From Candidatus Cloacimonadota bacterium (GTDB lineage: Bacteria; Cloacimonadota; Cloacimonadia; JGIOTU-2), in the NCBI GenBank assembly GCA_049903315.1, contig JBNGBT010000002.1, positions 288,001-352,000 on the forward strand: a DNA stretch of 64,000 nt. The letters are read 5' to 3'. The notes beneath the pieces are model-generated. The model saw only the letters and a list, made by a program, of their open reading frames with translations, did no database searches and was not told where the DNA came from. Positions 1,272 to 45,799 of the stretch are shown here, piece after piece; within the stretch, counting starts at the first letter, position 1, and each line of letters starts with the position of its first letter. A program made the position numbers and the translations under genes.

Positions 1272-1282
1272 AAGGAGCTTGA

Positions 1283-4276
1283 ATGAAAGTTATTCCGATA
1301 TTGGGTTTATGTATGTTTTTTTCCGTGATGCTTTATGGTCAGGCAATGTGGCAAGACGATGGAATACCGGTCCGCCAGGGTGTGAATATAGAATGGTACC
1401 GTTCCGGCGCAGCCTTGAATGATGGATCGGTAGTATATGTGTGGTCAGATACTCGCAGAGGAGATCGCGATGTTTGGGCTCAGCGCGTTGATATCAGCGG
1501 GAATCTCCTGTGGGGAGCAGACGGCATCATGGTCAATGGAGAAATAAACAGGCAGGAAGATCCTGTAGTTATTAATACCGGAGATGGAGGAGCAATAGTT
1601 GCGTGGGTTGATTTCAGGAACGAAGATGCTGGAGATGTCTATGCACAAAAATTAGATGTGAGCGGAAATCTCTTGTGGGATCCATCAGGTGTGCCTTTAT
1701 GTCTTGCAGGTGATGTGCAGATATCTCTTAATATTGTGAATGATGCAAATAATGGTGCTTTTGTAATTTGGCAGGATCACAGAAATCCTGGTGGAGTAGA
1801 TATATACGGTACTCATATAAATGCTTCCGGTTCGATCGTTACAGGTTGGAATACTAATGGAAATGCAATAGCTGCTCAGAATGGAGATCAGGATGGACAT
1901 ACATTCTGGGAAGATGGATTTGGCGGAGCTGTTGTTGCATGGCATGATACAAGAACTGCGACGAATGAAAACCTCTATATGCAGAGAATTGCTTCAGACG
2001 GTTCATTACTTTGGGATGCCGGAGGTACTTTGTTATGTGGCTCATCCGATACTCAGAGCAATGTGAAAATGTGCCCTGATGGTACTGGAAGTTTCATTTT
2101 TGTGTGGCGAGATAAACATCTCGATCCTGATGGCGATATAATGGCAATGCGGGTTGATATAGATGGAAATTTTTTGTGGGCTGTCGATGTTCCGATCTAT
2201 CAGGATGACAGCATTCAAAAGGATCCAAGGATTACTGAGTCTACCGATACTGGCGCTTTTATCGTGTGGGATGATTATCGTGATAGTCCTTACACCTCAG
2301 ATATTTATGCACAAAAGCTCGACGTAAGTGGTACACTTCTCTGGGATGCCGCAGGACTTGCACTTTGCACAGCTCCCAATGATCAGCTCGAACCGCGTTT
2401 GACTAATGATAATAATGCCGGATGTTATTTTGTCTGGACCGATGGAAGGGATGGGGGACATCCGCACGAAGATATTTATATGCAGCATGTTGATGATACC
2501 GGGACAATTGAATGGGAAGCGAATGGAAAAATGATCTGCAATGCATATGGAGAGCAGTTCTCAGCGCTTCTCAGAGGAAATGGCACAGGGAAAGTATATG
2601 TCATTTGGGGAGATAACAGAACTGGGTCTACCGGTCTTTATGTCCAAATTCTGGACGAACCAGGTACAGAATATCTCGCATCAAATGGAAAATTAATATA
2701 TTATGGTTTGTGCGGAGATGCAAAGAATTATTCTCTATATGAAAGTTCAGAAGAATCTGTCATTCTATGGGAGGACAGCAGAAGCCCTTACACTGGGAAT
2801 CAATTATATATGCAGATACTGAGTGATGACGGTACAGTGGAACTTGCGTTAAATGGAGAATCTCTTACTGATCCGACTGGATATGATCAGGAGAATGCTG
2901 ATGCGATATATTCGGTCTCTGAAAATGAGCTGGTTGCTGTCTGGGAAGAAAATAGAGCCGGTTTCAAACAAATATTTGCTCAGGCAGTAGATAACCAATG
3001 CACATCACTTTGGGCTGATGGCGGATTGGCTCTTGGAGATTTTTTCAGTGAGCAGCAAAATCCGAAAGTGTCCTCAATGACAGGTTCAAGATCACTTGAG
3101 TATTATACAGGGTGGTCGGATTATCGAGATTTTATGGATCCGGGCATTTTTGGTCAGAAGATTATTGATGGCGTGTTGCAATGGGATGATGAAGGCATTG
3201 AGATCGTTAATAGAAGTGGCGAAGACAAGCTGACTGATATTGTAGACATGTATTATATTTTTCAAAGCGGCGCATGGAATGATCAGAATATTTATGTGAA
3301 ATTAATAGATAGTGATGGAAATACTGCTGCTGGTTGGCCCAATGGTGGAGTCGCAGTTTGTACCGCAACAGGAAATCAGGATAATGCTACCGGTGTGATC
3401 GTACCCGAGGGTTTGTTCGTGATCTGGGAAGATACCCGAGATAGTGTACTTGCAATATATGGACAAGTCGTGACAAGTGCCGGTTCTATGCTTTGGCAGG
3501 AAAATGGCGTTCCAATCGCTAATTATGCAAACGACCAATCATCTCCTGCGTATATATATGAGAATGAACTGTACGCAGTATGGGAAGACTTCCGTAATGG
3601 CATTGATTATAATATTTTTGGACAAAAAGTGCAGTCATCGGACGGTACTCTTCTCTGGAATCCTGATGGAGTAGCAATTGTTGATGAGACCGGAGATCAA
3701 ACGAGTCCTGCAATTTCTATGATCGGTGCGAATCTCTGCATTCCGTGGCAGGATTTCCGAAATGGCACAAATGCAGATATTTTTGGACAGAAAGTGTCCT
3801 CAGATGGAACTGTGCTATGGGTCAACGATCTGCCGATTTGCACTGCGATCAAAAATCAGTCGGGGCCCCTCACTGTTCCTTTTGACGATAATTATGCAAG
3901 TATCATCTGGCAGGATGCCCGATCGAGCGGTAAGGCAGATATTTACAATATTTATGCTCAAAAAATTGAAATAAATGAAGTTTCGATCGATGATCCTCAT
4001 CATGGGAATAGCAGTTTTATAACACATTATCCTAACCCGATCTCTGGCTCTGTATATTTTACTTTACTATCTCCGACAGTGCATTCTGAAACTACTCTCG
4101 ATGTTTTCAATCTCAAGGGACAAAAGATATATTCACACATTTTTGAAGCTGGTGAGAGAAGCTATGAATGGAATACACACGACGTAAATGGAAATCCGGT
4201 TCACAATGGAATATATCTCTATAAATGCTCAAGTGCCGGAACCACTTCCATGAGTAAGCTAATTATATTGAGATAA
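1283..4276 (+). CDS. Secreted repeat protein (probable beta-propellers) with T9SS-type CTD
   Basis: RBS AAGGAG, signal peptide, many repeats of type W-x-D-x-R...DIYAQ...G..LW...G, and CTD YPNP...FNLKGQ...GIYLY. Confidence 0.85.
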   Translation: MKVIPILGLCMFFSVMLYGQAMWQDDGIPVRQGVNIEWYRSGAALNDGSVVYVWSDTRRGDRDVWAQRVDISGNLLWGADGIMVNGEINRQEDPVVINTGDGGAIVAWVDFRNEDAGDVYAQKLDVSGNLLWDPSGVPLCLAGDVQISLNIVNDANNGAFVIWQDHRNPGGVDIYGTHINASGSIVTGWNTNGNAIAAQNGDQDGHTFWEDGFGGAVVAWHDTRTATNENLYMQRIASDGSLLWDAGGTLLCGSSDTQSNVKMCPDGTGSFIFVWRDKHLDPDGDIMAMRVDIDGNFLWAVDVPIYQDDSIQKDPRITESTDTGAFIVWDDYRDSPYTSDIYAQKLDVSGTLLWDAAGLALCTAPNDQLEPRLTNDNNAGCYFVWTDGRDGGHPHEDIYMQHVDDTGTIEWEANGKMICNAYGEQFSALLRGNGTGKVYVIWGDNRTGSTGLYVQILDEPGTEYLASNGKLIYYGLCGDAKNYSLYESSEESVILWEDSRSPYTGNQLYMQILSDDGTVELALNGESLTDPTGYDQENADAIYSVSENELVAVWEENRAGFKQIFAQAVDNQCTSLWADGGLALGDFFSEQQNPKVSSMTGSRSLEYYTGWSDYRDFMDPGIFGQKIIDGVLQWDDEGIEIVNRSGEDKLTDIVDMYYIFQSGAWNDQNIYVKLIDSDGNTAAGWPNGGVAVCTATGNQDNATGVIVPEGLFVIWEDTRDSVLAIYGQVVTSAGSMLWQENGVPIANYANDQSSPAYIYENELYAVWEDFRNGIDYNIFGQKVQSSDGTLLWNPDGVAIVDETGDQTSPAISMIGANLCIPWQDFRNGTNADIFGQKVSSDGTVLWVNDLPICTAIKNQSGPLTVPFDDNYASIIWQDARSSGKADIYNIYAQKIEINEVSIDDPHHGNSSFITHYPNPISGSVYFTLLSPTVHSETTLDVFNLKGQKIYSHIFEAGERSYEWNTHDVNGNPVHNGIYLYKCSSAGTTSMSKLIILR

Positions 4277-4279
4277 GTC

Positions 4280-6559
4280 ATGAAAAAATACACCATCTTC
4301 ATTCTTGTTCTTATTCTTGCAGTTCCTTTATCTGCACAGGTTGCGCTGCCATCGAGATATCATACCTATGATGAGATCAAAGCTGAGCTGGATTCCCTCC
4401 AGCTTGTATATCCTGACCTCGTGTTTGTAGATTCTATCGGAGTGAGTAAAACTGATTCCATTCCTATCTGGGCAGTGAAACTTTCCGACAATGCATCTGT
4501 TGATGAAGATGAACCGGCTGTACTGTATGTGGGGCAATGTCATGCTGAGGAGGTCCTCGGAGTAGAGATCTCCATGTATATGATCAACGAGATATTGGGG
4601 CATTTTTATCAAGCTCCTTATGCAATCTGGTTGAGTGAACTTGAAATCTGGTTTATTCCTTCAATTAATCCCGAAGGATTGCAAGTGGTAATGGATGGAT
4701 GGGATACTGCTTACAGAAAAACGAAACGTGATAATAATTTTAACGGGATTTTTGATTTTCAGCCCGGACCGGGTCATGATATTGATGGAGTCGATCCAAA
4801 TAGAAACTACTCTTATAATTGGGTTCATGGAGACACGTTGTACGAGCCGAGCGGAGAAGAGCGGTACGATTATTATCGTGGACCTGAGCCGTTTTCAGAA
4901 GGCGGCACACAAGCCCTCAAACGTCTTGCACAACAACAGCAATTCCTTTTTTCAATAAACTGGCATTCTTCCCGAACAGGAAATTTCTCTGAGAAAGTTT
5001 TCTATTCGTGGGAATGGGATGGCTTTAAGCGATCACCCGATTTTGAGTTCAATAAAATAATTGGAGAAACTGTTGCATCACTGATAGAAACCGAAGATGG
5101 AACTGCTCATTATGAACCCTCTCCATCACGTGGACGAAAAGGAAATGCACAGGATTGGTTCTATAATACATTTGGTACAGTACAACTTCTTATAGAATGT
5201 GGAACAGAGAATTTACAGCCAAATGCAGCACTGGTAGATGATACATGCGAGCGATGCAAACTTGGTGCATATTGGCTTATGAACCGAGTGCTTGGCTATG
5301 AGACAGATGCTGCAATGCTGACTGGTCATATCGAGGATGGTCAAACAGGTTTACCTATTCAAGCTGAAGTGTACGTGAACGATCATGATATTGTGAGCTT
5401 TACTCCAAGAACATCGGATGAATTATATGGTCGTTACTGGCGGTTGCTCGAACCGGGCACGTATTCAATAACCTACAGAAAAAAAGGATATCAGGATACA
5501 ACGTTCAACAATATCACAATTAATAATTCCGCATGTGCAGTGAAAAATGTTTCTCTGCAACCACTTGCGCAAATTGCAGTTACAGGAAACGTTTATAATA
5601 ACGGTTCACCATTGCAATGTGATATGATACTTAATGATGGATATTTTGCAGACACGTTATCTGTGAGTGGAAGTTTCAACTTCAATTACTATGTTGGAAA
5701 TTATCAGGCAACCTTCATATCTCCGGGATATATCCCACAGATAATGGAACTGACTATTCAGAATGGAATGGACGCTCTCGACATTAATTTTCAACCTGAA
5801 GTAGTTATTTTTGAAGAAAATTGGGAATCAGGTATGGATGGTTGGAATGCTCAAAATTATTGGTGCCTTTATCCCGAACCTTATGAAGGGAATTTTGCGC
5901 TACGTGATAACAGCGAACGATTCTATCGTAACGGTTTTGAGTCCACTATAAAAACGAGTTCATCCATAAACTTGAATGGTGTGAATGAAGATGTTGCCTT
6001 CTCATTCTGGCATAAATATCATGTAGAATGGGAGCATGACAGCTGCTATGTTGAGATTTCATCCAATAATCAGGATTGGGAAGTACTCGCTTCATTTACA
6101 GGCTTTCAACAGGCATGGCAGCAGGTTGTAATTCCTTTGCAGGAGTGGGTAGATACTCATAGCTATTTACGATTCCGGATCAAGACAGACTCATATTTGA
6201 GTGATCCCGGTTGGCTGATTGATAATATTTCGATACTCTCTTCTCAAGGAAATGGAATAGAGGATCCTCCAATTCCAACTGAGTATATTTTATATCAAAA
6301 TCAGCCGAATCCATTCAATTTCATCACATTCTTCCCATATGAAGTCAAGAATTCACATCAGGAAAAACTTTCTCTCTCCATGTTTAATATCAAGGGGCAG
6401 CTTATTCGCACTTTTGAAGTAAGTGATAATAATTCAATGGTATCCTGGGATGGGAAAGATGCTCGTGGTCACAAAGTCGGGTCTGGTATTTATTTCTATC
6501 AACTAAAGGCAGAGAATAAAGTTATTCAAACGAAGAAGTGCGTTTTTTTTAATAAATAG
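4280..6559 (+). CDS. M14 zinc carboxypeptidase with carboxypeptidase-regulatory-like domain and CTD
   Basis: YHTYDEI, HAEE (HxxE), NPEG, DPNRNY, NWHS and IECG motifs; YGRYWRLLEPGTY; CTD NQPNPF...WDGKD. Confidence 0.88.
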   Translation: MKKYTIFILVLILAVPLSAQVALPSRYHTYDEIKAELDSLQLVYPDLVFVDSIGVSKTDSIPIWAVKLSDNASVDEDEPAVLYVGQCHAEEVLGVEISMYMINEILGHFYQAPYAIWLSELEIWFIPSINPEGLQVVMDGWDTAYRKTKRDNNFNGIFDFQPGPGHDIDGVDPNRNYSYNWVHGDTLYEPSGEERYDYYRGPEPFSEGGTQALKRLAQQQQFLFSINWHSSRTGNFSEKVFYSWEWDGFKRSPDFEFNKIIGETVASLIETEDGTAHYEPSPSRGRKGNAQDWFYNTFGTVQLLIECGTENLQPNAALVDDTCERCKLGAYWLMNRVLGYETDAAMLTGHIEDGQTGLPIQAEVYVNDHDIVSFTPRTSDELYGRYWRLLEPGTYSITYRKKGYQDTTFNNITINNSACAVKNVSLQPLAQIAVTGNVYNNGSPLQCDMILNDGYFADTLSVSGSFNFNYYVGNYQATFISPGYIPQIMELTIQNGMDALDINFQPEVVIFEENWESGMDGWNAQNYWCLYPEPYEGNFALRDNSERFYRNGFESTIKTSSSINLNGVNEDVAFSFWHKYHVEWEHDSCYVEISSNNQDWEVLASFTGFQQAWQQVVIPLQEWVDTHSYLRFRIKTDSYLSDPGWLIDNISILSSQGNGIEDPPIPTEYILYQNQPNPFNFITFFPYEVKNSHQEKLSLSMFNIKGQLIRTFEVSDNNSMVSWDGKDARGHKVGSGIYFYQLKAENKVIQTKKCVFFNK

Positions 6560-6663
6560 TAATTTTATCCTTTTTCTCATCGATTAGTTTTAAAAAAGAG
6601 AAAAAGTTTACAATGAATTATCATCAATAAAAAAGAGAATATTATTTTTAAACAGGATTGAAT

Positions 6664-9600
6664 ATGAAAAAGATTATTTTCCTTATTGTATTATGCTTTG
6701 TTTTTTCCTCTCAACTTTTTGCATGGCGACCTCAAGAAATGGAGGTCAAAGTCATTCTTAATTCACAAGAAGATTTTCAAGCATTACATGCTCTTAAACT
6801 GAATGGAGATGTGTATTCAGATTTTGCGCGAGTGTATGTAATCTCTGATGAATTTGATGTTCTAAAACAAACAGGTCTTGAATATGAAATAATTGTTGAA
6901 GACCTTGAAGCCCATTCCAAACAGATATTGGAACTGCGCACAAATTGGCTCTGGTATGATGATATTATTACATTGATGGATAGCTGTGCAACTGCTTTTC
7001 CTTTTATTTGCAGGAAAGAATATATCGGAGAAACTGTTGAAGGAAGACAGATTTCCGCATGTGTTATCAGTGATAATGTGTCCTTGGAAGAGAATGAGCC
7101 GGAGATCATGTTTGATGGAGGTATTCATGGAGATGAACTCTGCGCTGCAGAAAATGTGGCACGAATGATAAGATATCTTTGTGTGAATTACGGCTCCAAT
7201 ACTCAAGTCACTAATATTGTAAATAATACTGAAGTATGGCTTTATCCAATGGTCAATCCTGATGGACGATTTCATGTGGTCAGATACAATGCAAATGGAG
7301 TTGATCTTAACAGGGATTGGGGTTATATGTGGGATGCATGGGGTGGAAGTCCCGGCGCATATTCACAACCTGAAACAAAAGCACTCAGAAGCTGCATGTA
7401 TAATCACCAATTTGTCGTCCATACAACCTATCACAGTGGAACTGAATTTATTTCTCATCCATGGAGTTATCGTTCAAACCTGTGTCCGGATCATCCACAT
7501 ATCAATCAGCTTGCAGGCATCTATTCAACAAGTTCAGGTTATGCAAACCTCGAGTACGGACCGGGTTGTACAGGAATGTACCCGATCAATGGAAGTTCAA
7601 AGGATACAAATTACGGTGTGATGGGCTCAATAAGCTGGTCTATGGAAATTTCCTATCAGAAGCAGCCCCCAACATCACAAATTGTATATTATTGGAATCT
7701 TAACCTGCCTGCAATGCTTACTATGATGGAATACAGCAACTACGGGCTCAATGGACTTGTTACAGATGCTGTCACTGGTGATCCTGTATCAGCTCTCATC
7801 TGGGTAAACAACTTCATGCCTACTTATACAGACCCGCAAGTCGGCGATTTCCATAAGTATGTACTGAATGGAAATTATACTGTTACAGTCACTGCCAATG
7901 GGTACGAAAGCCAGACCATGAATAATGTTACGGTTACAGCAATGAATGCGACAACAGTTGATTTTCAATTGCAACCGTCTGATGACGATGCTTTTTATGG
8001 ATACAAATTTGCAGCAAGCCAAATTCCGGATAATAATACTGGAGATGAGGGAAATACACCTGCATCTCTCGGAGAACCGGATGAAGTAAATTACTCGATT
8101 GGGAAGGATGGATGGTGCATTATTGATATGCAATATCCAATAATCGACGGTGCATATAATGATTTCACAGTTTTTGAAGGAGATATAACTCCTGAAGGTT
8201 ACGACTGCTATGTCGGAAATTCTATCGATGGACCGTTCTATCTAGTTGGTGCCGGTTTTGGGACCACAGAATTTGATCTTAATGGATCGGGACTTGCGGA
8301 AGCACAGTTTATAAAAATAGTCGATGATGGAGATGGCACAGCTACCGCACCCGATGCCGGCTTTGATCTTGATGCGATCTCTACCGAGTTCATTCAAGGT
8401 GCTAATCTTGTAATAGATAATTATTATATTGATGACTCTGCGACAGGTAATGACGATGGTGTTCTCGATCCCGGAGAACAAGCTGACCTCAGTATAGTTG
8501 TGAGAAATAATGGCACCGAAACAGCACAAGATATCTTTTCCATGCTGAGTTGCACCGATTTATACATATCTGTTAATGGGGGACTTGAACCTTTTGGCAA
8601 TATCGAGCCCAGTGAGATGGATACTTCATTTGTGACTATCAGCGCTTCAGGTGGTACACCGAATGGGCATCCTGCTTATTTTTCACTTGATCTGCATTGT
8701 AACAATAGTGCATTTTCAGGAATGTATGATATTATAATAAACATCGGTACAATGCCATATGAAGATTTTGAGACAGGCGATTTCAGTGCATTCAACTGGC
8801 AATTCGGGGGCAGTTTGGATTGGACTATTGACACGAATGCGTATCAGGGTGTATATTGTGCACGATCTGGTGCGATAGGTCATAATCAAACAACTGAAAT
8901 GTCAGTCACTATGGATGTGAGCAGTGGACAGATATCATTTTACAGAAAGGTGTCCTCTGAAAGCAGCTACGATTTTTTGCAATTCTATATTGATGGCGCA
9001 ATGCAGGGACAGTGGTCAGGTCAAATGGACTGGTCTCAGGAATCATTTTCAGTTACAACTGGCACTCATACGTTCAAATGGGTATATGATAAAGATACAA
9101 ATACCACAGGTGGAAGCGACTGTGTCTGGATAGACAATATAAGCTTCCCTGCGTCGAATCCGGACTACCCGATTCTCTACATTGCTCCCACAATGTTTGA
9201 TTTTGGTCAGGTATTCGTTGGTAACGACTCAACGAAACAATTTTTAATTAAAAATGTCGGTGGTGGAACACTCGCTGGTACGATTACTACTCCAGTTGGT
9301 TTTTCAGTAATGGAAACAGGAGGTGTTTCTCCCGTAACAGTACTTGACTATAATTTATCAGGTGGAGATAGTCAGGAATATGAACTTATATTCTCACCAA
9401 CACTTGCCCAAACATATGACAATCAAATTTCTGTATCAGTGCTTCCTTTTCAATTTGAATATCTTAATGTGTACGGAGAAGGTGTTCCCCAAACCAGTCT
9501 TGACGATCCGGAGTTCTATAATGAAACCAGACTCCTCGGTAATTTCCCAAATCCTGTAGGGAATGCAACTGTGATTTCATATCAACTCAAGGGAAGTGCT

Positions 9601-9777
9601 CAATTGCAGGATGTTCTTATCGATATTTATAATATTCACGGAGATTACGTTACTACGATCAAAGGTGAAAAGGGAAGAGCATATTTCGATACTTCCCACC
9701 TCGGTAATGGACTGTATCTTTATAAACTACAGCACGATGACTCAGTTCAAATACAAAAAATGATATTATTAAAATGA
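6664..9777 (+). CDS. Multidomain M14 zinc carboxypeptidase with CTD
   Basis: GIHGDE, NPDG, RYNANGVDLNRDW, TYHSG and MEIS motifs. Start moved to ATG 6664 (ACAGGA upstream, signal peptide MKKIIFL). CTD at the C-terminus. Confidence 0.88.
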   Translation: MKKIIFLIVLCFVFSSQLFAWRPQEMEVKVILNSQEDFQALHALKLNGDVYSDFARVYVISDEFDVLKQTGLEYEIIVEDLEAHSKQILELRTNWLWYDDIITLMDSCATAFPFICRKEYIGETVEGRQISACVISDNVSLEENEPEIMFDGGIHGDELCAAENVARMIRYLCVNYGSNTQVTNIVNNTEVWLYPMVNPDGRFHVVRYNANGVDLNRDWGYMWDAWGGSPGAYSQPETKALRSCMYNHQFVVHTTYHSGTEFISHPWSYRSNLCPDHPHINQLAGIYSTSSGYANLEYGPGCTGMYPINGSSKDTNYGVMGSISWSMEISYQKQPPTSQIVYYWNLNLPAMLTMMEYSNYGLNGLVTDAVTGDPVSALIWVNNFMPTYTDPQVGDFHKYVLNGNYTVTVTANGYESQTMNNVTVTAMNATTVDFQLQPSDDDAFYGYKFAASQIPDNNTGDEGNTPASLGEPDEVNYSIGKDGWCIIDMQYPIIDGAYNDFTVFEGDITPEGYDCYVGNSIDGPFYLVGAGFGTTEFDLNGSGLAEAQFIKIVDDGDGTATAPDAGFDLDAISTEFIQGANLVIDNYYIDDSATGNDDGVLDPGEQADLSIVVRNNGTETAQDIFSMLSCTDLYISVNGGLEPFGNIEPSEMDTSFVTISASGGTPNGHPAYFSLDLHCNNSAFSGMYDIIINIGTMPYEDFETGDFSAFNWQFGGSLDWTIDTNAYQGVYCARSGAIGHNQTTEMSVTMDVSSGQISFYRKVSSESSYDFLQFYIDGAMQGQWSGQMDWSQESFSVTTGTHTFKWVYDKDTNTTGGSDCVWIDNISFPASNPDYPILYIAPTMFDFGQVFVGNDSTKQFLIKNVGGGTLAGTITTPVGFSVMETGGVSPVTVLDYNLSGGDSQEYELIFSPTLAQTYDNQISVSVLPFQFEYLNVYGEGVPQTSLDDPEFYNETRLLGNFPNPVGNATVISYQLKGSAQLQDVLIDIYNIHGDYVTTIKGEKGRAYFDTSHLGNGLYLYKLQHDDSVQIQKMILLK

Positions 9778-9783
9778 GGTAAC

Positions 9784-10980
9784 ATGGAATTATCACAAAG
9801 AGCATTAGGTATTCAGGCATCACCGATAAGAAAACTTGCTCCTTATGCAGACGAAGCAAAGGCAAAAGGTACGCATGTATTTCATCTTAACATCGGACAA
9901 CCGGATATTGAAACACCAAAAGAGATCATGGATGTATATAATCATTTTGATGAAAAGGTGCTGAGTTACGGTCCTTCACAGGGATTGCTGAAATATAGGA
10001 AAAATCTTATAAATTATTATAACAAGCATCAAATTCCACTCAAAATAGAAGACCTCATCGTTACTACAGCTGGTTCGGAAGCTATTATTTTTGCACTTTT
10101 GGCAACCTGTAATGTGGGCGATGAAATAATAGTACCAGAACCTTTCTATACAAATTATAATGGATTTGCAACGATTGCAGGTGTAAAGATCAGACCTCTC
10201 ACGACCTATGCTGAAGAAGGTTTTGCATTGCCGTCAAATGAAAAAATAATTGAGTGCATCACAGATAAAACGAGAGCAATTCTTTTCAGCAATCCAGGAA
10301 ATCCTACAGGCGCAGTTTACTTGAAAAGTGATCTTGAACGGTTGGCAGAAATTGCACTTGAATATGATCTGTATCTTATTTCTGATGAAGTGTATCGGGA
10401 ATTTGTATATGATGGTCTTTCACATGTAAGCAGTCTCCATATTAATGGAATTGAAGATCGGGCAATTATGGTTGACAGCATCTCAAAACGATACAGTGCG
10501 TGCGGTGCAAGAATCGGTTGTATCATTTCAAGGAATCAAGTACTCATGCAGTCATTGCTGAAATTTGCCCAGGCACGGCTCTGTCCTCCAACGATTGATC
10601 AACTTGCAGCAAATGCAGCAGTAGATATTCAGGATGAGTATTTTATTAGTGTACTGCAAGAATATGATAAACGCAGAAATATCGTGTATGATGAAGTACA
10701 GCAAATCGAAGGTGTGGTGTGCGTCAAACCCCAGGGAGCTTTCTATATTATTGTAAAACTTCCTATTGAAGATGCTGAAGATTTTGCGATATGGATGCTT
10801 GAAAAATTTTCTGAAGATGACCAGACTGTAATGTTCGCACCAGCTGAAGGATTCTATGCAACACCAGGTCTTGGCAGAAATGAAGTTCGTCTTGCATATA
10901 TTTTGAACGAGAAAGCGTTAAAGCGCGCAATGTTTCTGTTCCGAAGAGGATTGCAGGAATACATGAATAAAAATTTATGA
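9784..10980 (+). CDS. PLP-dependent aminotransferase class I/II (aspartate aminotransferase-like)
   Basis: LNIGQPD, SNPGNPTG, SDEVYREF and SISKRYSACGARIG (PLP lysine). Confidence 0.92.
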   Translation: MELSQRALGIQASPIRKLAPYADEAKAKGTHVFHLNIGQPDIETPKEIMDVYNHFDEKVLSYGPSQGLLKYRKNLINYYNKHQIPLKIEDLIVTTAGSEAIIFALLATCNVGDEIIVPEPFYTNYNGFATIAGVKIRPLTTYAEEGFALPSNEKIIECITDKTRAILFSNPGNPTGAVYLKSDLERLAEIALEYDLYLISDEVYREFVYDGLSHVSSLHINGIEDRAIMVDSISKRYSACGARIGCIISRNQVLMQSLLKFAQARLCPPTIDQLAANAAVDIQDEYFISVLQEYDKRRNIVYDEVQQIEGVVCVKPQGAFYIIVKLPIEDAEDFAIWMLEKFSEDDQTVMFAPAEGFYATPGLGRNEVRLAYILNEKALKRAMFLFRRGLQEYMNKNL

Positions 10981-10992
10981 TAGGAGTATGAT

Positions 10993-13900
10993 ATGAAGCA
11001 CATTGTGTTACTTGGATTGTTTGTTTTATTGAGCTCATCTTTGTTTGGAGAAGTAATTGAACTCACGCCGTCTCAGACATTAGTTGATATTACATATTTT
11101 GATGAAAATAATGTAACAATGCAGATCTCACTCGACAAATTCGAGAGAACGGTTCAGCAAAAAGATGGAATTGCATTTGATAATCTCTTTGTCGATTCAT
11201 GGAGTAGATTAAGAGAAGAAGGATATCCTGCATTGCCCTCGATAAGAAAAATGGTAATGGTTCCTGAAAATGGATCTGTTGAAGTTGAAATGTCTGTTTT
11301 GAAAAGCATTGAATACGAGAATATTCATCCGTATCCCGCGCAACCATCTGCAGTTGATAATGATGCTTTTGATACACCTCCTTTTACCTATAATGAACAA
11401 TTCTATACTTCTCAAAATACATATCCGCAAAAAATGTATTCCGTATCGGAAATTTTCACAATACGAGGATTAAGTTTTGTATATCTTACAATAACTCCAT
11501 TCCAATATCATGCTTCCAAAAATATCTTATCCATTGCAGAAGAATTTGAAATCTCACTAAATATATCAGGCACCTATGAATTTGATGACAGATTTTATTC
11601 TGAATATTTAAGTTCAATCGTTATGGATAATGCTATAAATCCAGTGTATGAAGTTCCACAAAGAACTTATCCCAAGGATGTGGATGGTGCGGACCTGATC
11701 ATAGTGACCACATATGATTTTATGGATGCGGCAGAAACACTGAAGGAATGGAAATCGCAGAAGGGATTTTATACGGATATTGCTTACTTAGAAGAAATAG
11801 GTTCGACAGCTCAAAATATTTACACCTATCTCTTTCTCGCATATGAGATTTGGACTCTTCCTCCGTCTTTTGTGATCTTTTTGGGAGATTCAGATATCGT
11901 GCCGACAAATTATATTCCAGATCAGCTTTCCGGCGGATACTTAGGTTCTGATAGACCCTATGCTTGTATGGATGGTGATTATCATCCCGATTTTGGGTAT
12001 GGAAGATTATCTGTAGATGATGAGCAACAGGCATTTATCGTGATTGATAAGATCATTCAATACGAGAAAAATCCTCCAGCATTATCATCATTTTATGAAG
12101 ATGTTATAAATGCCGGATACTTTCAGGATGATGAACATGACGGGTACGAAACAAGGCGTTTTATAAAAACTTCGGAAGAAATGCGCGACTTCCTTCTTTC
12201 CGAAAATTATAATGCAGAAAGAATTTATGTGACAGAAGGCTCGGTGAATCCGACTAATTATAATAATGGATACTATGCAAATGGAGGACCCATCCCTGAT
12301 GAATTGCTGAGGGTGAATGGATTTCCATGGAACGGAAATGCGACAGATATCACTAATGCAATCAATAATGGTATTTTTATGATAACTCATAGAGATCATG
12401 GATATACTGCCGGATGGGGTGATCCGGCTTATAACACGGGTAATATAGCTCAATTAACTAATGGAGAATTACTGCCGATGGTTTTCAGTATCAATTGCCA
12501 AACCGGCTGGTTTGACAGCGAAACAGATGACGACCCAGGCACATTCGAATGTTTCACAGAGATGTTCATCCGAAAAGAAGATGGGGGAGCAGTCAGCTCA
12601 ATCGGAGCATGCAGAAATTCTCTCAGTGGGTACAATGATTTCCTGGCACTTGGAATGATAGATGGTATGTGGGATAATTTTCTTCCTGATTTTAACTTTA
12701 ACACGAATGGCTATCTTGGCTATGTCATGTATGAGGGTTTGATCGTTATGGAACAGTTGTGGAATCCTTTACAATATGAATTCGATATATTCCATGTGAT
12801 TGGCGATCCGACTATTCAAATCTGGCGGGAGCAGCCATTGGAAATTACTGCAACACATGACCTTGGCTTTACTTATGATATAACTTCTATTCCGATTACA
12901 ACTAATATAGATGAAGGAATTGCATCTCTCGTCGTTGATGGAGAACTTGTAGGAAAAACAGAGTTCACTACATCATCTTTTGACCTTTACTTATCCGAAT
13001 CCTTATCTGCACCTCAAACTGGAACGATAACTATAACTGCTCGTGATCATCAGCCCTATGTTCAATCTGTAACATTCATCCCACCAAATGGAAGCTTTGT
13101 CATTATAGATGATTTCTCCATTTCCGATATCAATGGAAATGCAGATGGAGAATGGGACGCAGGTGAGGAAATAATTCTCACCTACAATTTGACGAATGTG
13201 GGTAATGAACCTGTTGATAGTATTGATTTTGAAATATATACAGATGAGAGCTTTTTGGATATTACTCAACCAATCACGACAATTACTGGTTTACAAGCTG
13301 GTGAGTCAATAATTTATAACACCGATGCGCTGATCTCGATGGAATGTACTCATGATCAGAGAATAACGTTAGAAGCAGTAGTGAGTAATATAAGCGCAGA
13401 TTTTGTAGATATTCAGAATTTCAATATTGTCAAACTTCCGAAGATTGTACTGCCAATAGATTCCGTCTATTACGAAGTATCTGATAACTCTATAGTGAGT
13501 GTGCCTTTTGAGATTCAGAATATTGGTGCAGACACCCTTCGCTGCACACTGCTTAACCATTCACATGAATGTGCAAATCTTACTGAGGACGCATCATATC
13601 TTACCATTCCACATGTTGTTGAATTCGAAAATCTAAGCCAGCTTACTTTAACAATGTGGTTAAAACTCAGCCAGATATCCCAGCCTGGATTTATATTGAA
13701 TAAAGGTCTGATCAACGGAGATTTGAGTTTTACTATATCAATGACTAATAGTTCAACACTGTTATACAAATTCCGGGATGCATCGGGTGCCGACTTTCAA
13801 AAAATGGTGAGTTTAGATTTCGCACTTGATGAATGGTTTAATCTGGCATTCGTAGTGAATGAAACTTCAATTACGTCCTATCTGAACGGTGAATTACTCG

Positions 13901-14676
13901 ATACTGATTCTTTTATCTCTCCAATTTATTCAACCAATACAGATATTTTGGTAGGATCATATGTAAATTCCGTGTATGAATTTAACGGATATATTGATGA
14001 ACTTGGAATCTATACTGAAGCATTCACGCAGAATGAATTGCAGGATATGCTCTGCTCAACTGCAAGAGGAAATACGCCAGCCTTGCTCAGTTATTATAAG
14101 TTTGATGCTGAAACAGAAGTTCATGATTATACAGGTTATAATGATGCTCTACCAGAAGGTTCGATCTCATTTGAGAATGCGGGTGCTCCTGTTATGACAT
14201 GGTTTGGCTTTGATTGCTCAGAATTAGTTGTGGAGCCCTATCAAAACGCAGTTATGGATATTTCATTTAATACTCTGGGCTATGACCCGCAATTATTCTC
14301 ATCATACCTGGAGATCAACTCAAATGCAGAGAATAGAAACAGTATGTTGATACCGATTGAATTGCTCTATGAACCATACAGTGTCGATCAAAATAATACT
14401 TTCAACGCTCTCTCATTTTTCTATTCGAATCCATTCTCTCCGCATGATGAAATACAATTCAGCTTAAAAACCCAGCAACATATTTCTGTAGATATATATA
14501 ATTTAAAGGGACAGTTTGTCACAAATATTATCGATGATATGCTTGCACCTCAGAACTATTCTTATCAATGGAATGGGAAAGACCACTCAGGTAGAACGGT
14601 TGAGAATGGTGTGTATTTCATTAGAATTAATTCTGAAGAAAGTACAAATTTCAAGAAAATGGTTTTCCTGAGATAG
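10993..14676 (+). CDS. C25 (gingipain-like) cysteine protease with propeptide, LamG-like domain and CTD
   Basis: GYPALPSI propeptide, WKSQKG, FLGDSD, GRLS, catalytic HRDHG and SINCQTG; LamG-like WFNLAFV...YLNG...FNGYIDELGIY; CTD. Confidence 0.88.
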   Translation: MKHIVLLGLFVLLSSSLFGEVIELTPSQTLVDITYFDENNVTMQISLDKFERTVQQKDGIAFDNLFVDSWSRLREEGYPALPSIRKMVMVPENGSVEVEMSVLKSIEYENIHPYPAQPSAVDNDAFDTPPFTYNEQFYTSQNTYPQKMYSVSEIFTIRGLSFVYLTITPFQYHASKNILSIAEEFEISLNISGTYEFDDRFYSEYLSSIVMDNAINPVYEVPQRTYPKDVDGADLIIVTTYDFMDAAETLKEWKSQKGFYTDIAYLEEIGSTAQNIYTYLFLAYEIWTLPPSFVIFLGDSDIVPTNYIPDQLSGGYLGSDRPYACMDGDYHPDFGYGRLSVDDEQQAFIVIDKIIQYEKNPPALSSFYEDVINAGYFQDDEHDGYETRRFIKTSEEMRDFLLSENYNAERIYVTEGSVNPTNYNNGYYANGGPIPDELLRVNGFPWNGNATDITNAINNGIFMITHRDHGYTAGWGDPAYNTGNIAQLTNGELLPMVFSINCQTGWFDSETDDDPGTFECFTEMFIRKEDGGAVSSIGACRNSLSGYNDFLALGMIDGMWDNFLPDFNFNTNGYLGYVMYEGLIVMEQLWNPLQYEFDIFHVIGDPTIQIWREQPLEITATHDLGFTYDITSIPITTNIDEGIASLVVDGELVGKTEFTTSSFDLYLSESLSAPQTGTITITARDHQPYVQSVTFIPPNGSFVIIDDFSISDINGNADGEWDAGEEIILTYNLTNVGNEPVDSIDFEIYTDESFLDITQPITTITGLQAGESIIYNTDALISMECTHDQRITLEAVVSNISADFVDIQNFNIVKLPKIVLPIDSVYYEVSDNSIVSVPFEIQNIGADTLRCTLLNHSHECANLTEDASYLTIPHVVEFENLSQLTLTMWLKLSQISQPGFILNKGLINGDLSFTISMTNSSTLLYKFRDASGADFQKMVSLDFALDEWFNLAFVVNETSITSYLNGELLDTDSFISPIYSTNTDILVGSYVNSVYEFNGYIDELGIYTEAFTQNELQDMLCSTARGNTPALLSYYKFDAETEVHDYTGYNDALPEGSISFENAGAPVMTWFGFDCSELVVEPYQNAVMDISFNTLGYDPQLFSSYLEINSNAENRNSMLIPIELLYEPYSVDQNNTFNALSFFYSNPFSPHDEIQFSLKTQQHISVDIYNLKGQFVTNIIDDMLAPQNYSYQWNGKDHSGRTVENGVYFIRINSEESTNFKKMVFLR

Positions 14677-19301: not shown

Positions 19302-19392
19302 CCTATAATCAGCTGTATCTAAGAAAATCGTTATTTTTCTTGACAAGCCCCTTAGTAAAAATATCAAGTATTCAAAACATGCTGGAGGCAGT

Positions 19393-21399
19393 ATGAAAAA
19401 GCTATTTATTATTTTTGTAATTTTATCATTTTTTATTACTATACCACTTTGTGCCCAATCAATAATCTGGCAAGAAAATTTTAATACAAATCCCGGCACC
19501 TGGGCACTAGATTCAAACTGGAGTATTCAAAGTGGTGCATTAATGTTATCCTGGTCGCCCACAGTCGCTCCCTATGATCTTAGTGCGACATCACCATTCA
19601 TCAATTTACCGTTAAATGTAGGGGATCTGACTGTTTCTCAGTTTATTGACGAGTTTTCGACAAATACAGGAGAAGTAACAAACATTGAACTGATTCATCC
19701 TGGAGGAACAACTGTTCTATGGAGTTTCGATTTGGTTGGTACTAATTGGGGTTATTCTGGTGGTAAAGATATAAGCTTCTCTTTATTCCCATATGCAGGA
19801 CAGCAAGTTCAAATTAGATTTAGAAGTTACGGAGGAAGTACCTATAATTTCAATTATTGGTACATTTATAATGTTGCCATTAATGCATCTCTCGATCATG
19901 ACCTTGCAGCAACAAACATTTCCGGCAATAACATTCTTAATATCGGGCAGCAGGGATTATGGAATGTGACAGTCAAAAACACCGGGCTTAATACTGAGTC
20001 TAATTATGAAGTAAATCTCATGCGAGAACCGGGCATCGTGCTGGGTTCTACTTTTGCAACTACTCCTCTCGCTCCTGATCAACAAACCATCTATCAGTTC
20101 AACTGGACTCCGGATATAAGTGAAGTGGTCAATCTTTACGGGCAGGTTATTCTACCTGGTGATGAGTTCTTGGATAATAATACGACAAATCCATTTTTGG
20201 TTAATATTTATCCTGATGACCCGATTAATGTGCTTGTCTGGGATAATGATAATGCTTCGGATATTGATGGAATAGGTACACAGGTTTTTCTTGAAGAAGC
20301 TCTCACTGCAAATAATGTAACTTATGATACATACACATACCTGCCGGCAAATCTCACACCATATGATGCCATATTTGTTGCTCTTGGCATCTACTGCGTT
20401 GGCTGAGGCACTACACCTCCAGGCTCCGTCGGAGCCTCTGATCAAACGACTTTAATGAACTATCTTTATGGTGGACATCCAATTTATATTGAAGGTTCAG
20501 ATCTGGGATATTCTCACCAGGGAACAGCTTTCCTCGCAAGTCTCGGATGCAGTTTCTTGTCAAATGATACACAAAATATTGGTACTATGACAGGAGTATC
20601 AGGTACTGTTGGAGAAGATTTTGTTTTTCCTTTCACTGCCAATACCGATGCAAATTACTCAGTAGATGAGATAGGCGGAATATTCAGCAGAAGTGTTGCA
20701 TTCAGATCCGATAACAACTATTCCCGTACAGTTGCGTATGCAGGAGCGAATTATAGCACCATTGCATCAACACCGATACTCGGCGGATTAGAAAATACTG
20801 ATACAAACTCAAAAGCTGATTTGGTTGCAACATATCTCGGATACATGCTTAAAATAAATGGTGTATTTCGCGGTATTGTTACAGATAATAATACAGGCGA
20901 TCCTGTTCAAAATGCCACAGTGAATGTAGGTACGTTTAGTGGTGTGACAAATTCATATGGACTTTGTGCGATAGAAGTTCCCCCCGGTTCATATGGTATA
21001 AGCTGCTCACATCCGAATTATGCAACTTTCGTGTATCCATCAGAAATTATAATAGATTATAATGACACATACTGGATGGATATCTCTCTTACTCCAAGTG
21101 TTTCAATTGATGATTTTGAGCAACAGGACGGCATCACGCGCATCTTTCCAAATCCCTTTACCATTCAAACCGCTATTAAATACTATATGAAATCTTCAGG
21201 AAATGTAGATATCAGTGTATTTAATATTAAGGGACAAAAGGTGTGTACTTTAGTTGATGAATACAAACAATCCGGCTATCATGATAATACATTTAACAAT
21301 TCATCTGAATATACTGCGGGACTTTCTTCTGGTATCTATTTCATGAAGTTGGAAACAGAGCAAGTCACTCAAATTGAAAAATTCATAATTCTTGAGTAG
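19393..21399 (+). CDS. Predicted secreted selenoprotein (CxxU), 668 aa with TGA 20404-20406 read as Sec; CARDB-like and carboxypeptidase-regulatory-like domains and CTD
   Basis: ORFs 19393..20406 and 20455..21399 share a frame and the 16 codons between them are open. The junction reads LGIYCVG-U-GTTPPGSVGASDQTTLMNYL. The signal peptide is only in the first part and the CTD only in the second. A SECIS-like hairpin follows the TGA. Confidence 0.75.
20404..20440 (+). promoter_or_regulatory. Putative bacterial SECIS element
   Basis: Perfect 7-bp stem AGGCTCC (20421-27) / GGAGCCT (20431-37) with loop GTC; 21 nt separate the TGA from the loop. Confidence 0.7.
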
Positions 21400-21414
21400 A
21401 ATAATTTATAACAG

Positions 21415-21449
21415 AAAAAGCCAGTTCAGTATGTGAGCTGGCTTTTTTT
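21415..21449. terminator. Bidirectional intrinsic terminator
   Basis: AAAAAGCCAGTTCA-gtatg-TGAGCTGGCTTTTTTT between the convergent CDS and tRNA. Confidence 0.85.
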
Positions 21450-21460
21450 GTAATAAAAAA

Positions 21461-21535
21461 TGGTAGCCCCAAGGGGAATCGAACCCCTGTTACCGGAATG
21501 AGAATCCGGCGTCCTTACCCCTAGACGATGGGGCC
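21461..21535 (-). tRNA. tRNA-Glu (anticodon CTC)
   Basis: Minus strand GGCCCCATCGTCTAGGGGTAAGGACGCCGGA-TTCTCAT-TCCGGTAACAGGGGTTCGATTCCCCTTGGGGCTACCA: acceptor stem, GTTCGA T-loop and encoded CCA. Confidence 0.95.
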
Positions 21536-35662: not shown

Positions 35663-36646
35663 ATGAATATACAAGAGATCAACCAAAAAGTAATTGAAAA
35701 AACTGAGTTTGTTCAGTCCATTTTTACTGAAATAGCAAAGGTCATTGTAGGTCAGGAATATATGATACGACGTTTGCTGATCGGACTTTTTGCAGATGGA
35801 CATGTACTGCTCGAAGGTGTTCCGGGACTTGCAAAAACTCTTTCAGTCAGCACTCTCGCTGATGTGATCAGTGTCGCTTTTAATCGAATTCAATTCACTC
35901 CCGATCTTCTTCCCGCAGACCTTATCGGAACGCTTATTTTTAATCAGAAAGAGGGGACTTTTACCCCGAAAAAGGGTCCTATCTTTTCGAACATTATTCT
36001 TGCTGATGAAATTAACCGGGCACCTTCAAAAGTGCAAAGCGCTCTCCTCGAAGCAATGCAGGAACGCCAGGTAACTATTGGCGAGAAATCCTACAAGTTG
36101 GATGAGCCGTTTCTTGTACTTGCAACACAGAATCCTATCGAACAGGAAGGCACATACCCACTCCCCGAAGCACAGGTCGACAGGTTTATGCTCAAACTCA
36201 AAGTAACGTATCCCAAAAAAGAAGAAGAAAGAGAAATTATCAATAGGATGTCAGATAATAAACCGATCAAAGTAAATAAGGTCATCAAGCCCAAAGACGT
36301 GCTTCATACAAGGGCTTTGGTAAATGAAATTTATGTTGATGAAAAGATCAAGGAGTATGTGCTGAACATTGTCTTCTCGACCCGAACACCGGAAGAATAC
36401 GGATTGAAAGATATCAGTGAGTTTATTGAATTCGGTGCTTCACCCCGTGCTTCGATCTATCTTGTACGTGCAGCAAAAGCAAATGCGCTTCTTGACCAGC
36501 GTGGTTACGTGTCACCTGAAGACATTAAGGAGATCGGCAAAGATGTGTTGCGGCATCGTATCATCCTTACCTATGAAGCTGAAGCGGAAAATATTACTCC
36601 GGAAGATATTGTTGATAGAATCTTTGATGAAATTGAAATTCCATAA
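35663..36646 (+). CDS. moxR: MoxR-family AAA+ ATPase
   Basis: EGVPGLAKT, RIQFTPDLLPAD, ADEINRA and ATQNPIEQEGTYPLPEAQVDRF. Confidence 0.95.
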   Translation: MNIQEINQKVIEKTEFVQSIFTEIAKVIVGQEYMIRRLLIGLFADGHVLLEGVPGLAKTLSVSTLADVISVAFNRIQFTPDLLPADLIGTLIFNQKEGTFTPKKGPIFSNIILADEINRAPSKVQSALLEAMQERQVTIGEKSYKLDEPFLVLATQNPIEQEGTYPLPEAQVDRFMLKLKVTYPKKEEEREIINRMSDNKPIKVNKVIKPKDVLHTRALVNEIYVDEKIKEYVLNIVFSTRTPEEYGLKDISEFIEFGASPRASIYLVRAAKANALLDQRGYVSPEDIKEIGKDVLRHRIILTYEAEAENITPEDIVDRIFDEIEIP

Positions 36647-36664
36647 TTAGAATATTCATAAGTT

Positions 36665-37543
36665 ATGATCCCAAAAGAGATTCTCCAGCAGATCAAACGC
36701 ATTGAGATATCCACCAGAAGCATAGTCAATGACATGTTTTCCGGCGAGTATCACAGTGTGTTCAAAGGACAGGGACTCGAATTTTCCGAAGTGCGCGCAT
36801 ACCAGCCCGGAGATAATGTCAAACTCATTGACTGGAATGTGTCTGCTCGTATGGGACATCCGTACATTAAAAAATTCGAAGAAACCCGTGAACTCACCGT
36901 CATGCTCATGATCGACGTGAGCCGATCAGGTTCATTTGGAACATTTCACAAGTTAAAAAGGGAAATCGCTGCAGAAGTTGGTGCTATTCTCTCGTTCTCT
37001 GCAACAAAAAACAACGATAAAGTGGGCTTGCTTCTCTTCTCTGATGAGGTAGAAAAATATATCCCGCCCAAAAAAGGAAAAAACTCAGTTTTGAGAATTG
37101 TTCGTGAAATCCTTTATTACAAGCCGGTTCATCAGAAAACAAGTTTGCAGAATGCTCTCGAATATTATTACAAGATGTCCAAAAAACGTAGTATTCTTTT
37201 CCTCATTTCAGATTTCTTCGATGTTGATTATCAAAAAACACTGCAAATCGTCGCGCAGAAGCATGATGTCGTTGCAATCCGCATTCTCGATCCGAAAGAA
37301 TATACGCTTCCAGAAGTAGGATTTATTACCTTTCAGGATGCAGAAACAGGCAAAGAAGTAATCATAAATGCAAATGATAGTGAGCTTCGCAAGAAATACG
37401 AGGAATATATTTCAGAAACTGTCCAATCATTTCCTCAGCTTCTGAAAAAGTTGAAGATAGATCTGATCGATATCCGCACAGATACAGATTATATTGAAGA
37501 TATAGTGAAATTTTTCAAGCAGAGAGCAAAAAGGTTTCGATGA
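36665..37543 (+). CDS. DUF58 domain protein
   Basis: GEYHSVFKGQGLEFSEVRAYQPGD, IDWNVSAR and ISDF. Confidence 0.92.
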   Translation: MIPKEILQQIKRIEISTRSIVNDMFSGEYHSVFKGQGLEFSEVRAYQPGDNVKLIDWNVSARMGHPYIKKFEETRELTVMLMIDVSRSGSFGTFHKLKREIAAEVGAILSFSATKNNDKVGLLLFSDEVEKYIPPKKGKNSVLRIVREILYYKPVHQKTSLQNALEYYYKMSKKRSILFLISDFFDVDYQKTLQIVAQKHDVVAIRILDPKEYTLPEVGFITFQDAETGKEVIINANDSELRKKYEEYISETVQSFPQLLKKLKIDLIDIRTDTDYIEDIVKFFKQRAKRFR

Positions 37544-41214: not shown

Positions 41215-41215
41215 T

Positions 41216-43012: not shown

Positions 43013-43758
43013 AAAAATATATATTTATTTTGAGCATATTACTTCTCATTCCTTTATTGCTTTGTGCAAAGAAGTACGATCTGAGTGCTGCTAATACTGC
43101 TTACCAGGAACAGAATTATCAAAAAGCTGAAGAAGAATACATGAAACTTGTCACCGAAGGAGTGAAAAATTTCGAGCTTTTTTATAATCTTGGAAATACG
43201 TATTTCAAACTGAATGATCTTGGCAGTGCACGACTCTATTACGAAAAAGCTGCAAAATTTGAGCCGCTCAACACTGAATTAAATGAGAATATTGCAATGC
43301 TGTTGGCAAGCATTAAAGACAAAGAGGAAGTCAACAGGTCATTTATCGAAACTCTACTACGAAAAATATATTTTGCATTTTCAATCAACCTCTTGGGAAT
43401 ATTTGTACTTGTAATTTTCATTATTATGATGATTTTCATCATTATTCTCATCATGAGTAAAAGTATAATGCTTAAGCGAGTTGTGAAAATTCTTCTCGTG
43501 GTTTTCGCAGTGATCTTCTTTCTGGTGACTGTAACTGAAGTAGTGAGGATTCGGGATTTCTATACTGATGATTCTGCAGTAATACTTCAAGAAACAGTTA
43601 TTGCGTATAGTGGTCCGAGTGAGGATTTTTCACAGGTATTCACTATTCATGAAGGATTGAAAGTATCAATCGAAAGGTTTGATAATGACTGGGTCCTGAT
43701 AAAACTTCCATCCGGAAATGGGGGATGGGTACTTTCCACATCATTAGGAATTATTTGA
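43009..43758 (+). CDS. batE: BatE (TPR + TM + SH3-like)
   Basis: YNLGNTYFK, ARLYYEKA, SGPS...IHEGLKV...GWV. Confidence 0.85.
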   Translation: MKKYIFILSILLLIPLLLCAKKYDLSAANTAYQEQNYQKAEEEYMKLVTEGVKNFELFYNLGNTYFKLNDLGSARLYYEKAAKFEPLNTELNENIAMLLASIKDKEEVNRSFIETLLRKIYFAFSINLLGIFVLVIFIIMMIFIIILIMSKSIMLKRVVKILLVVFAVIFFLVTVTEVVRIRDFYTDDSAVILQETVIAYSGPSEDFSQVFTIHEGLKVSIERFDNDWVLIKLPSGNGGWVLSTSLGII

Positions 43759-45794: not shown

Positions 45795-45799
45795 AAATG

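Follow-up and report, generated by a model that had tools for sequence, protein, structure and literature searches.

A probable selenoprotein family with a CxxU motif on type IX secretion-type cargo in Candidatus Cloacimonadota

The bacterial selenoprotein catalogue of 2026 comprises 119 families (PMC13188914). These include CxxU proteins such as GrdA and the SelW-like, AhpD-like, BtuF and TonB-dependent receptor (FCYXU type) families, in which an in-frame UGA specifies selenocysteine (Sec), homologues carry Cys, and a selenocysteine insertion sequence (SECIS) hairpin read by SelB lies in the coding region, 16 to 37 nt downstream, with a loop that starts G-U (PMC13188914). The same arrangement is found in a 64,000-nucleotide stretch of a Candidatus Cloacimonadota genome (GCA_049903315.1, contig JBNGBT010000002.1, positions 288,001 to 352,000; hereafter the window), where positions 19393-21399 form one 668-aa frame once the TGA at 20404-20406 is read as Sec. 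In contrast to the known CxxU selenoproteins, 80 members of the family defined by this protein have no Pfam or NCBIfam selenoprotein match at E <= 0.1, and its Sec domain has no entry among the 119 families in Table 1 of the catalogue. The NF004836 selenoprotein (CTP-synthase C-terminal-related, glutamine amidotransferase) shares the broad fold class (PMC13188914 and the accessible part of PMC12013277). However, its motif is GxUxG, whereas the family here has CxxU-G after strand 3 and is modular and probably exported, and NF004836 gave zero matches among the 80 members at the same threshold.

Selenoproteins related to the cell envelope are known, since the catalogue includes TonB-dependent receptor, outer-membrane barrel and Omp28-related families (PMC13188914), the last of which (NF045500) is a thioredoxin-type UxxC protein unrelated to the domain described here. 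The initial annotation knew of no characterised selenoprotein family secreted by means of a C-terminal sorting domain (CTD). Exported selenoproteins as such had already been catalogued; the novelty lies in the domain family described here and in its surface context, marked by a CTD. Type A cargo of type IX secretion systems (T9SS), such as gingipain-like CTD proteins, has the same signal peptide, immunoglobulin-like (Ig) or MAM stalk and sorting domain, but the protein here most likely contains Sec and its host belongs to the Cloacimonadota. A T9SS in this phylum is only suggested in the accessible part of PMC11285876, and according to the corresponding part of PMC8542988 the Cloacimonadota in one Antarctic lake are heterotrophic anaerobes that secrete peptidases and glycosidases. 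Neither T9SS nor Cloacimonadota is mentioned in the accessible text of PMC13188914, nor T9SS in that of PMC12013277 and PMC13326102. No description of the family was found in the literature covered, outside which Haft and Tolstoy 2025 and a groundwater deep-Sep survey may bear on it, and the selenoprotein family on T9SS-type cargo is real and probably undescribed. The gene and its parts, all on the plus strand of the window, are as follows.

19393..21399, plus strand: whole gene, 668 aa with Sec (translation; orthologues)
19384..19388, plus strand: Shine-Dalgarno-like GGAGG ahead of the start codon (sequence)
19393..19455, plus strand: signal peptide, aa 1-21, basic then hydrophobic, L-C-A before Q22 (sequence inspection, not a dedicated predictor)
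19456..19887, plus strand: MAM-like jelly-roll beta-sandwich, about aa 22-165 (AlphaFold2 (AF2) model, predicted local distance difference test (pLDDT) 94; Foldseek)
19900..20187, plus strand: CARDB Ig-like domain, aa 170-265 (Pfam E 8e-4, below cut-off; Foldseek 3idu, TM 0.75)
20221..20862, plus strand: class I glutamine amidotransferase (GATase)-like alpha/beta Sec domain, aa 277-490 (AF2, VIA-align)
20395..20406, plus strand: C335-V-G-U338 motif with the TGA at 20404-20406 (copy comparison)
20421..20437, plus strand: SECIS hairpin AGGCTCC-GTC-GGAGCCT (-10.7 kcal/mol; consensus in the accessible part of PMC13188914; covariation)
20869..21093, plus strand: CarboxypepD_reg-like Ig domain, aa 493-567 (Pfam E 1e-8)
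21142..21390, plus strand: T9SS type A CTD (Por_Secre_tail), aa 584-666 (PF18962 E 8e-11; TIGR04183 E 4e-11)

The ATG at 19393, the TGA at 20404-20406 and the TAG at 21397-21399 share one frame, and the read-through translation runs ...ALGIYCVG-U-GTTPPGSVGASDQ... across the junction. An open reading frame (ORF) finder cuts the gene into 337 and 314 aa, with 16 codons between the TGA and the ATG at 20455. The coordinates, the one-frame ORF pair and this gap had been given correctly in the initial annotation, as had the division of signals: a hydrophobic leader is present solely in the first part and Por_Secre_tail solely in the second. The absence of a Shine-Dalgarno sequence near ATG 20455 was also borne out, the sole GGAG close by lying about 20 nt upstream, within the hairpin. 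Contigs assembled from four of four runs (four studies, depth 11-64) span the gene unbroken with zero letter differences; these are assembled contigs rather than raw reads and may be the source of this DNA. The runs containing the gene are seawater or marine metagenomes.

Comparative evidence makes it almost certain that the TGA at 20404-20406 is a Sec codon. A search for selA, selB, selD and tRNA-Sec had been proposed as a check, and all are found in the genome (96% complete): tRNA-Sec (TCA anticodon), selA and selB are consecutive (C22:50020-53723), and selD occurs twice, once in a NifS-SelD fusion and once as a gene with an in-frame TGA and, after it, a small hairpin of similar kind. Across the phylum, selA is present in 69 of the 74 genomes with TGA-bearing family genes; in the five without it, completeness is 59-96%, and tRNA-Sec and selB adjoin the gene in one. 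The largest family of the phylum (f6) has neither the Sec domain (0/98) nor selA (0/98), although these co-occurrence counts include kin genomes and are not independent, so that a Fisher P value should not be read literally. TGA terminates 390 long ORFs in the genome and, in the window, the ORFs ending at 9777, 10980 and 37543, and the alternative residue at the Sec column is Cys, in agreement with the earlier view that no change of genetic code is involved.

A search of 232 phylum genomes with aa 277-490 returned 128 Sec-domain matches in 84 genomes. Exactly one in-frame stop, always TGA, is present in 95 of these (74 genomes), and 33 are stop-free. Among 105 distinct copies fetched (five TGA matches and most weak hits were left out), 90 have TGA at one profile column, nine have TGC and the other six lack the motif or are truncated; TAA and TAG are absent from inside the domain in all 105. 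The predicted alternation of Cys and TGA codons among homologues is thus seen at a single column, in copies with identity to the window copy as low as 29%. The Cys of the CxxU motif is kept in 98 of the 99 motif-bearing copies. The nine TGC loci fall in six genomes, all of which contain selA, and three further CxxC proteins are found in the database. Orthologues of 666-668 aa with the same TGA are present in six genomes of the same genus, and a seventh is broken at its 5' end.

The 150 best of 259 representative database homologues were also classified. Fifty-eight begin just after the Sec column and nine end just before it (eight of them in C-x-x), 82 span it (5 CxxC, 2 CxxW and 75 motif-less), and one is mixed. 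Two C-terminal fragments carry WOR-3 names (P0030 and P0101), which may mean that the family is not confined to the phylum. Looking up a Cys homologue in the ESM Atlas gave nothing beyond hypothetical CTD proteins and a single ThuA-plus-CTD cluster. A midpoint-rooted FastTree phylogeny of 176 domains unites the motif-bearing copies (support 0.78) and sets them apart from 71 motif-less domains, and Cys forms are nested within Sec groups at five places. This nesting favours Sec as the ancestral state of the motif-bearing clade, with repeated reversion to Cys, on the midpoint root.

The second line of evidence is the hairpin. According to the accessible part of PMC13188914, bacterial SECIS elements have a stem of at least 4 bp, a 3-9 nt loop located 16-37 nt past the UGA, a folding energy of -7.5 kcal/mol or lower, and a loop that starts with G then G/U, with a closing pair. 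The window hairpin satisfies this rule, with a 7-bp stem, a G-U-C loop beginning 21 nt downstream of the TGA and -10.7 kcal/mol, and the position and spacing in the initial annotation were confirmed; its core pairs are +19..+23 with +29..+33 (T of TGA as +1), around the loop C-GUC-G. The same geometry and energy follow only 4 of the 390 ordinary TGA stops in the genome. Taken by itself, the hairpin stands out only modestly from its context (z -2.1 over 47 nt and -0.8 over 96 nt), and Rfam gave zero matches over it. SECIS geometry is present in 87 of the 90 TGA alleles, and 70 of them reach -5 kcal/mol compared with 5 of 390 control TGA stops. Fifty-nine of the 90 distinct sequences pair fully in the window register and 15 do so when the register is moved by one base; the other 16 fit neither. 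In the window register, which was itself defined from the window sequence, 80% of cells are paired compared with 63% in shuffles, and there are 91 two-sided changes compared with 34, a value reached in none of 500 shuffles. Further, in 58 of 60 and 31 of 34 alleles the free third position of a stem Gly codon is the Watson-Crick partner of the base opposite, where 19.4 and 10.2 are expected from codon use (85 distinct TGA sequences, excluding rows without Gly there or with Pro or Gln at the middle codon). Protein constraint cannot yield such partner matching at synonymous Gly third positions. Machinery, TGA/TGC alternation and hairpin covariation together support the original proposal of a 668-aa exported CxxU selenoprotein with a coding-region SECIS.

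The 214-aa Sec domain, which defines the family, is modelled by AF2 (with Cys for Sec) as one continuous domain with a pLDDT of 95. Its fold is that of non-catalytic GATase-like domains over its whole length: STM3548 (2gk3; VIA-align Z 17.3, root-mean-square deviation (rmsd) 2.9, 187 residues aligned), 3rht (Z 16.9), the GH42 middle domain (5xb7, 4oif; 16.6), ThuA-like proteins (4jqs, 1t0b; 14.9) and the IFT52 N-domain (5fms). Together these matches span Z 17.3-13.9, rmsd 2.8-3.4 and 177-191 aligned residues, and Foldseek agrees. In contrast to this structural likeness, identity is 9-15% with no match at the sequence level, and the CxxUGxTPPG loop is specific to the motif-bearing clade. Searches of Pfam and NCBIfam with the 80 members gave nothing beyond a few weak ThuA and GLMA_2nd matches, and sequence searches of the PDB with the Sec domain gave chance matches only (E >= 0.14). 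The motif follows strand 3, where C-x-x-U-G-x-T-P-P takes the place of a shorter loop in motif-less relatives.

Two enzymatic identities considered for the domain found little support. Catalytic GATases carry their nucleophile Cys after strand 4, a site located here by DSSP order and not by residue superposition; strand 4 ends Y365-I-E367-G368-S369, following the family pattern Y-x-E-G-[A/V/S] without Cys, and no His is conserved above 65% in the family. The fold of a class I glutamine amidotransferase is present, with neither this Cys nor a conserved His-x-Glu pair. A thioredoxin-fold CxxU identity (SelW/Rdx) gained no support at the sequence level, where no Rdx or thioredoxin model matched; the top 50 structural matches are all GATase-like or contain such a domain, and thioredoxin folds are absent among the matches listed.

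The remainder of the protein is modular. The MAM-like region, whose best Foldseek match is the MAM-Ig module 2c9a (E 5e-10, TM 0.44), is probably a binding or spacer module, and Pfam MAM is found at the equivalent place in homologues. The Sec domain is shuffled among proteins ranging from 338-aa leader-domain-CTD forms to 930-aa forms with Ig, MAM and NIDO stalks. Among 29 full-length proteins (27 motif-bearing ones picked from 76 complete locus proteins, and two from the database), the Pfam partners are of Ig, MAM, NIDO, fn3 and CTD type only. Catalytic partners are absent from this set, suggesting that the Sec domain is the business end.

Export to the cell surface by a T9SS-type route is highly likely from the gene content. 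A CTD-type motif is present in all 72 complete TGA proteins and a leader, by a simple hydrophobic-leader rule, in 70 of them. SprA (a 2110-aa frame), PorV and PorU are all encoded in the genome with matches over curated cut-offs, while PorP is a weak match below its cut-off. Of the genome's 171 ORF segments that end in a CTD, five have their leader in the in-frame segment just before them, with TGA as the break in every case. The five are the window gene, a paralogue, an Omp28-related UxxC protein, an AhpC/TSA-like UxxC protein and a beta-helix protein, and in the last three the TGA is conserved in other genomes. These genes and an associated operon are located as follows (G000 denotes this genome).

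G000:C22:43322-45499 (L210:11323-13500): Omp28-related selenoprotein candidate, 725 aa, with leader, thioredoxin domain, PKD, beta-helix and CTD
G000:C22:48072-49994 (L210:16073-17995): AhpC/TSA-like candidate, 640 aa, with leader, domain, PKD and CTD
G000:C69:9698-11845 (L212): beta-helix-type candidate, 715 aa, with leader, beta-helix and CTD, TGA after C-E-Y-G
G000:C22:32855-37854: operon of DsbD, Omp28-like lipoprotein, TlpA/ResA fused to TonB_C, and DUF6029
G000:C22:65261-68793 (L211): NifS-SelD fusion (Cys-type SelD), then a 345-aa CxxU paralogue

The Omp28-related protein, a distant CTD-bearing relative of NF045500 (E 5e-23, below cut-off), has the motif T-S-T-S-TGA-G-Y-C and a strong SECIS-like hairpin (-11.3); its TGA is retained in 6 of 27 matches among 31 genomes, the five closest included. 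The AhpC/TSA-like gene, with the motif G-G-T-G-TGA-G-G-C, lies directly ahead of tRNA-Sec, and it has matches in 57 of the 232 genomes, the best 60 each with one TGA. The TGA of the beta-helix gene is also present in four other genomes among the 31 searched. Both thioredoxin-fold UxxC genes share a cluster with DsbD, the Omp28-like lipoprotein, TlpA, DUF6029 and selC-selA-selB, and the gene order of the DsbD operon is the same in several genomes; nothing pairing DUF6029, Omp28 and DsbD was found in the literature covered. The paralogue of the Sec domain has the motif C-F-G-TGA and directly follows the NifS-SelD fusion, and the second, Sec-containing selD is located on C55. The GATase-like CxxU gene is co-directional with the DsbD operon on long stretches from 6 of 14 genomes, a sample biased by six chosen for a nearby AhpC-like gene. 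Six genomes (five genera, three families), among the 47 with both places listed, have a family gene no more than 10 kb away from DUF6029, compared with about 0.5 expected; distances were computed for 14 genomes and the others judged by contig ids.

The explanation that best accounts for these observations, and one we consider probable, is a surface selenol/thiol redox protein that is recharged across the envelope. SelB would read the hairpin 21 nt past the UGA and insert Sec338, a step strongly supported by the comparison. The signal peptide would then direct the protein to the secretory (Sec) translocon and the CTD to a T9SS-type translocon (SprA, PorV, PorU) and the cell surface. Within a GATase-like module that otherwise lacks the motif, one clade would have acquired the loop on which Cys335 and Sec338 sit, and the MAM and Ig domains would provide the stalk and the binding parts. 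A redox role of this Cys/Sec pair outside the cell is about as probable as the account as a whole; the pair could act as a two-electron selenol/thiol switch that reduces or reshuffles disulfides or absorbs oxidants. Recharging by the DsbD, TlpA, Omp28-like lipoprotein and DUF6029 system, which often adjoins family genes, would be the weakest step, quite conceivable but short of probable.

Several observations weigh against this account. To our knowledge, no GATase-like CxxU redox enzyme has been described. The window copy has no redox or Sec neighbours, standing alone between a sigma-54 regulator that precedes it and a convergent tRNA-Glu downstream. In 41 of the 47 genomes, many of them fragmented, no linkage of a family gene with DUF6029 is seen. 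DUF6029 is present in 198 of 232 phylum genomes, including 93 of 98 in the Sec-less family, and near-universal occurrence of this kind indicates that the DsbD operon is not dedicated to the selenoprotein family; it may be a general envelope system into which selenoproteins plug. As for export, the T9SS motor genes GldM and GldN were not detected by searches whose controls were also silent, and GldK and GldL were not searched. With respect to the hairpin, just 29 of the 90 TGA alleles reach -7.5 kcal/mol (in the isolated-hairpin version of the rule), the counts of covarying pairs and of pair types, two of the five pair measures, are no higher than in shuffles, and RNAalifold gave no consensus structure over the 90 hairpin regions. 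The initial annotation had expected the hairpin to be conserved only in TGA alleles, which is not so: eight of nine TGC alleles retain it, which fits recent Sec-to-Cys reversions nested in Sec clades. It had also named Trp homologues as a sign against Sec. Trp does occur at the Sec column in two of the 150 database homologues (P0005 and P0039), known from protein records; otherwise the aligned alternative is Cys. The Trp in these two may be a gene-caller rendering of TGA or a true TGG. A metagenome scan with P0005 found the domain in 1 of 77 loci, motif-less, the remainder being CTD matches.

The same selenoprotein could instead use its Cys/Sec pair to capture selenium or a soft metal at the surface, serving supply or handling rather than disulfide redox. 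We regard this as unlikely. The paralogue directly after the NifS-SelD fusion points in this direction, as does the position of a family gene next to selD, selB or tRNA-Sec in 8 of 74 genomes (fetched flanks of 1.5-6 kb). However, selenoprotein genes often cluster with Sec genes for co-regulation alone, and no transporter lies beside the window copy or the paralogue. A third Cys before helix 1, which would favour this reading in the 46 of 99 copies that have it, is missing here and in over half of the family.

It is slightly less likely still that the Sec domain is a non-catalytic adhesin or scaffold, where the bond between Cys and Sec has a structural role or acts as a redox latch gating binding. 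The closest folds (STM3548, the GH42 middle domain, ThuA-like proteins and IFT52) are non-catalytic, and 75 of the 82 full-span homologues among the best 150 of 259 are motif-less, suggesting that the fold works without CxxU. Against this, the costly Sec is retained in 90 of 99 motif-bearing copies at identities down to 29%, with a hairpin constraining the codons, and uncharacterised CxxU/UxxC selenoproteins are thought to be mostly redox proteins (PMC13188914). The UGA might alternatively be a selenium-dependent switch that yields a CTD-less periplasmic fragment at low selenium and the full surface form only with selenium. The stop always precedes the CTD, so that read-through would decide export, but it cuts the domain after its third strand, most homologues would yield a fragment with about 65 aa beyond the signal peptide, and Cys alleles occur in six genomes possessing selA, which makes such a switch very improbable. 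Finally, a nonsense pseudogene, an assembly error or a genome-wide reassignment of TGA to Trp or Gly, for which the two Trp homologues might be cited, was rejected as having next to no probability, given the same TGA in 74 genomes without another stop in the domain, contigs of four studies identical across the gene, and 390 long ORFs ended by TGA with Cys as the aligned alternative.

A broader form of the surface redox account, which we offer as speculative, is that those Cloacimonadota that use Sec carry a surface coat of several unrelated selenoproteins, put there by a T9SS-type system and kept reduced by an electron wire across the outer membrane, the GATase-like domain being a new class of redox enzyme. 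The coat would tentatively consist of the GATase-like CxxU family, two thioredoxin-fold UxxC families and one beta-helix family, and the wire of DsbD, TlpA, the Omp28 lipoprotein and DUF6029. If true, a redox active site arose when a CxxU loop, bringing its own SECIS, was inserted into a non-catalytic module.

The family would enlarge the known selenoproteins by at least 95 genes, found in 74 of the 232 genomes from one phylum, and would bring Sec chemistry to T9SS-type surface cargo and to a fold and a loop not recorded for selenoproteins. Public annotation splits its genes, since the Sec codon marks the start or the end of 67 of the best 150 of 259 database homologues. The hairpins, in which amino acids change to keep base pairs, form a clean natural data set for bacterial SECIS rules, and natural CxxC homologues allow biochemistry without Sec expression. 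Combined with the companion CTD selenoproteins and the DsbD operon, the family provides a testable model of extracellular selenium redox chemistry in anaerobic protein degraders.

Downstream of the gene, the window contains two further features.

21411..21451, no strand assigned: strong hairpin with A/T runs on either side, likely a bidirectional terminator (-26.3 kcal/mol, z -9.7)
21461-21535, minus strand: tRNA-Glu, convergent with the Sec gene (tRNA scan)

The hairpin likely serves both convergent genes, although a terminator scan did not pick it up, and a promoter scan performed at chance level (11 found compared with 9.3). Elsewhere in the window, a run of CTD-bearing secreted proteins at 129-14676 includes two M14 carboxypeptidases and a C25 gingipain-like peptidase. 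A cluster at 35663-43758 encodes a MoxR AAA ATPase, DUF58, vWA/BatA, BatB, TPR, BatD and BatE-like proteins. It is followed at 44172-49338 by Mur-ligase (CapB-like) and CapC genes and then three ORFs without a Pfam match, which together look like poly-gamma-glutamate capsule genes. On the minus strand, positions 56800-63276 encode three WG-repeat proteins, one with an esterase fusion.

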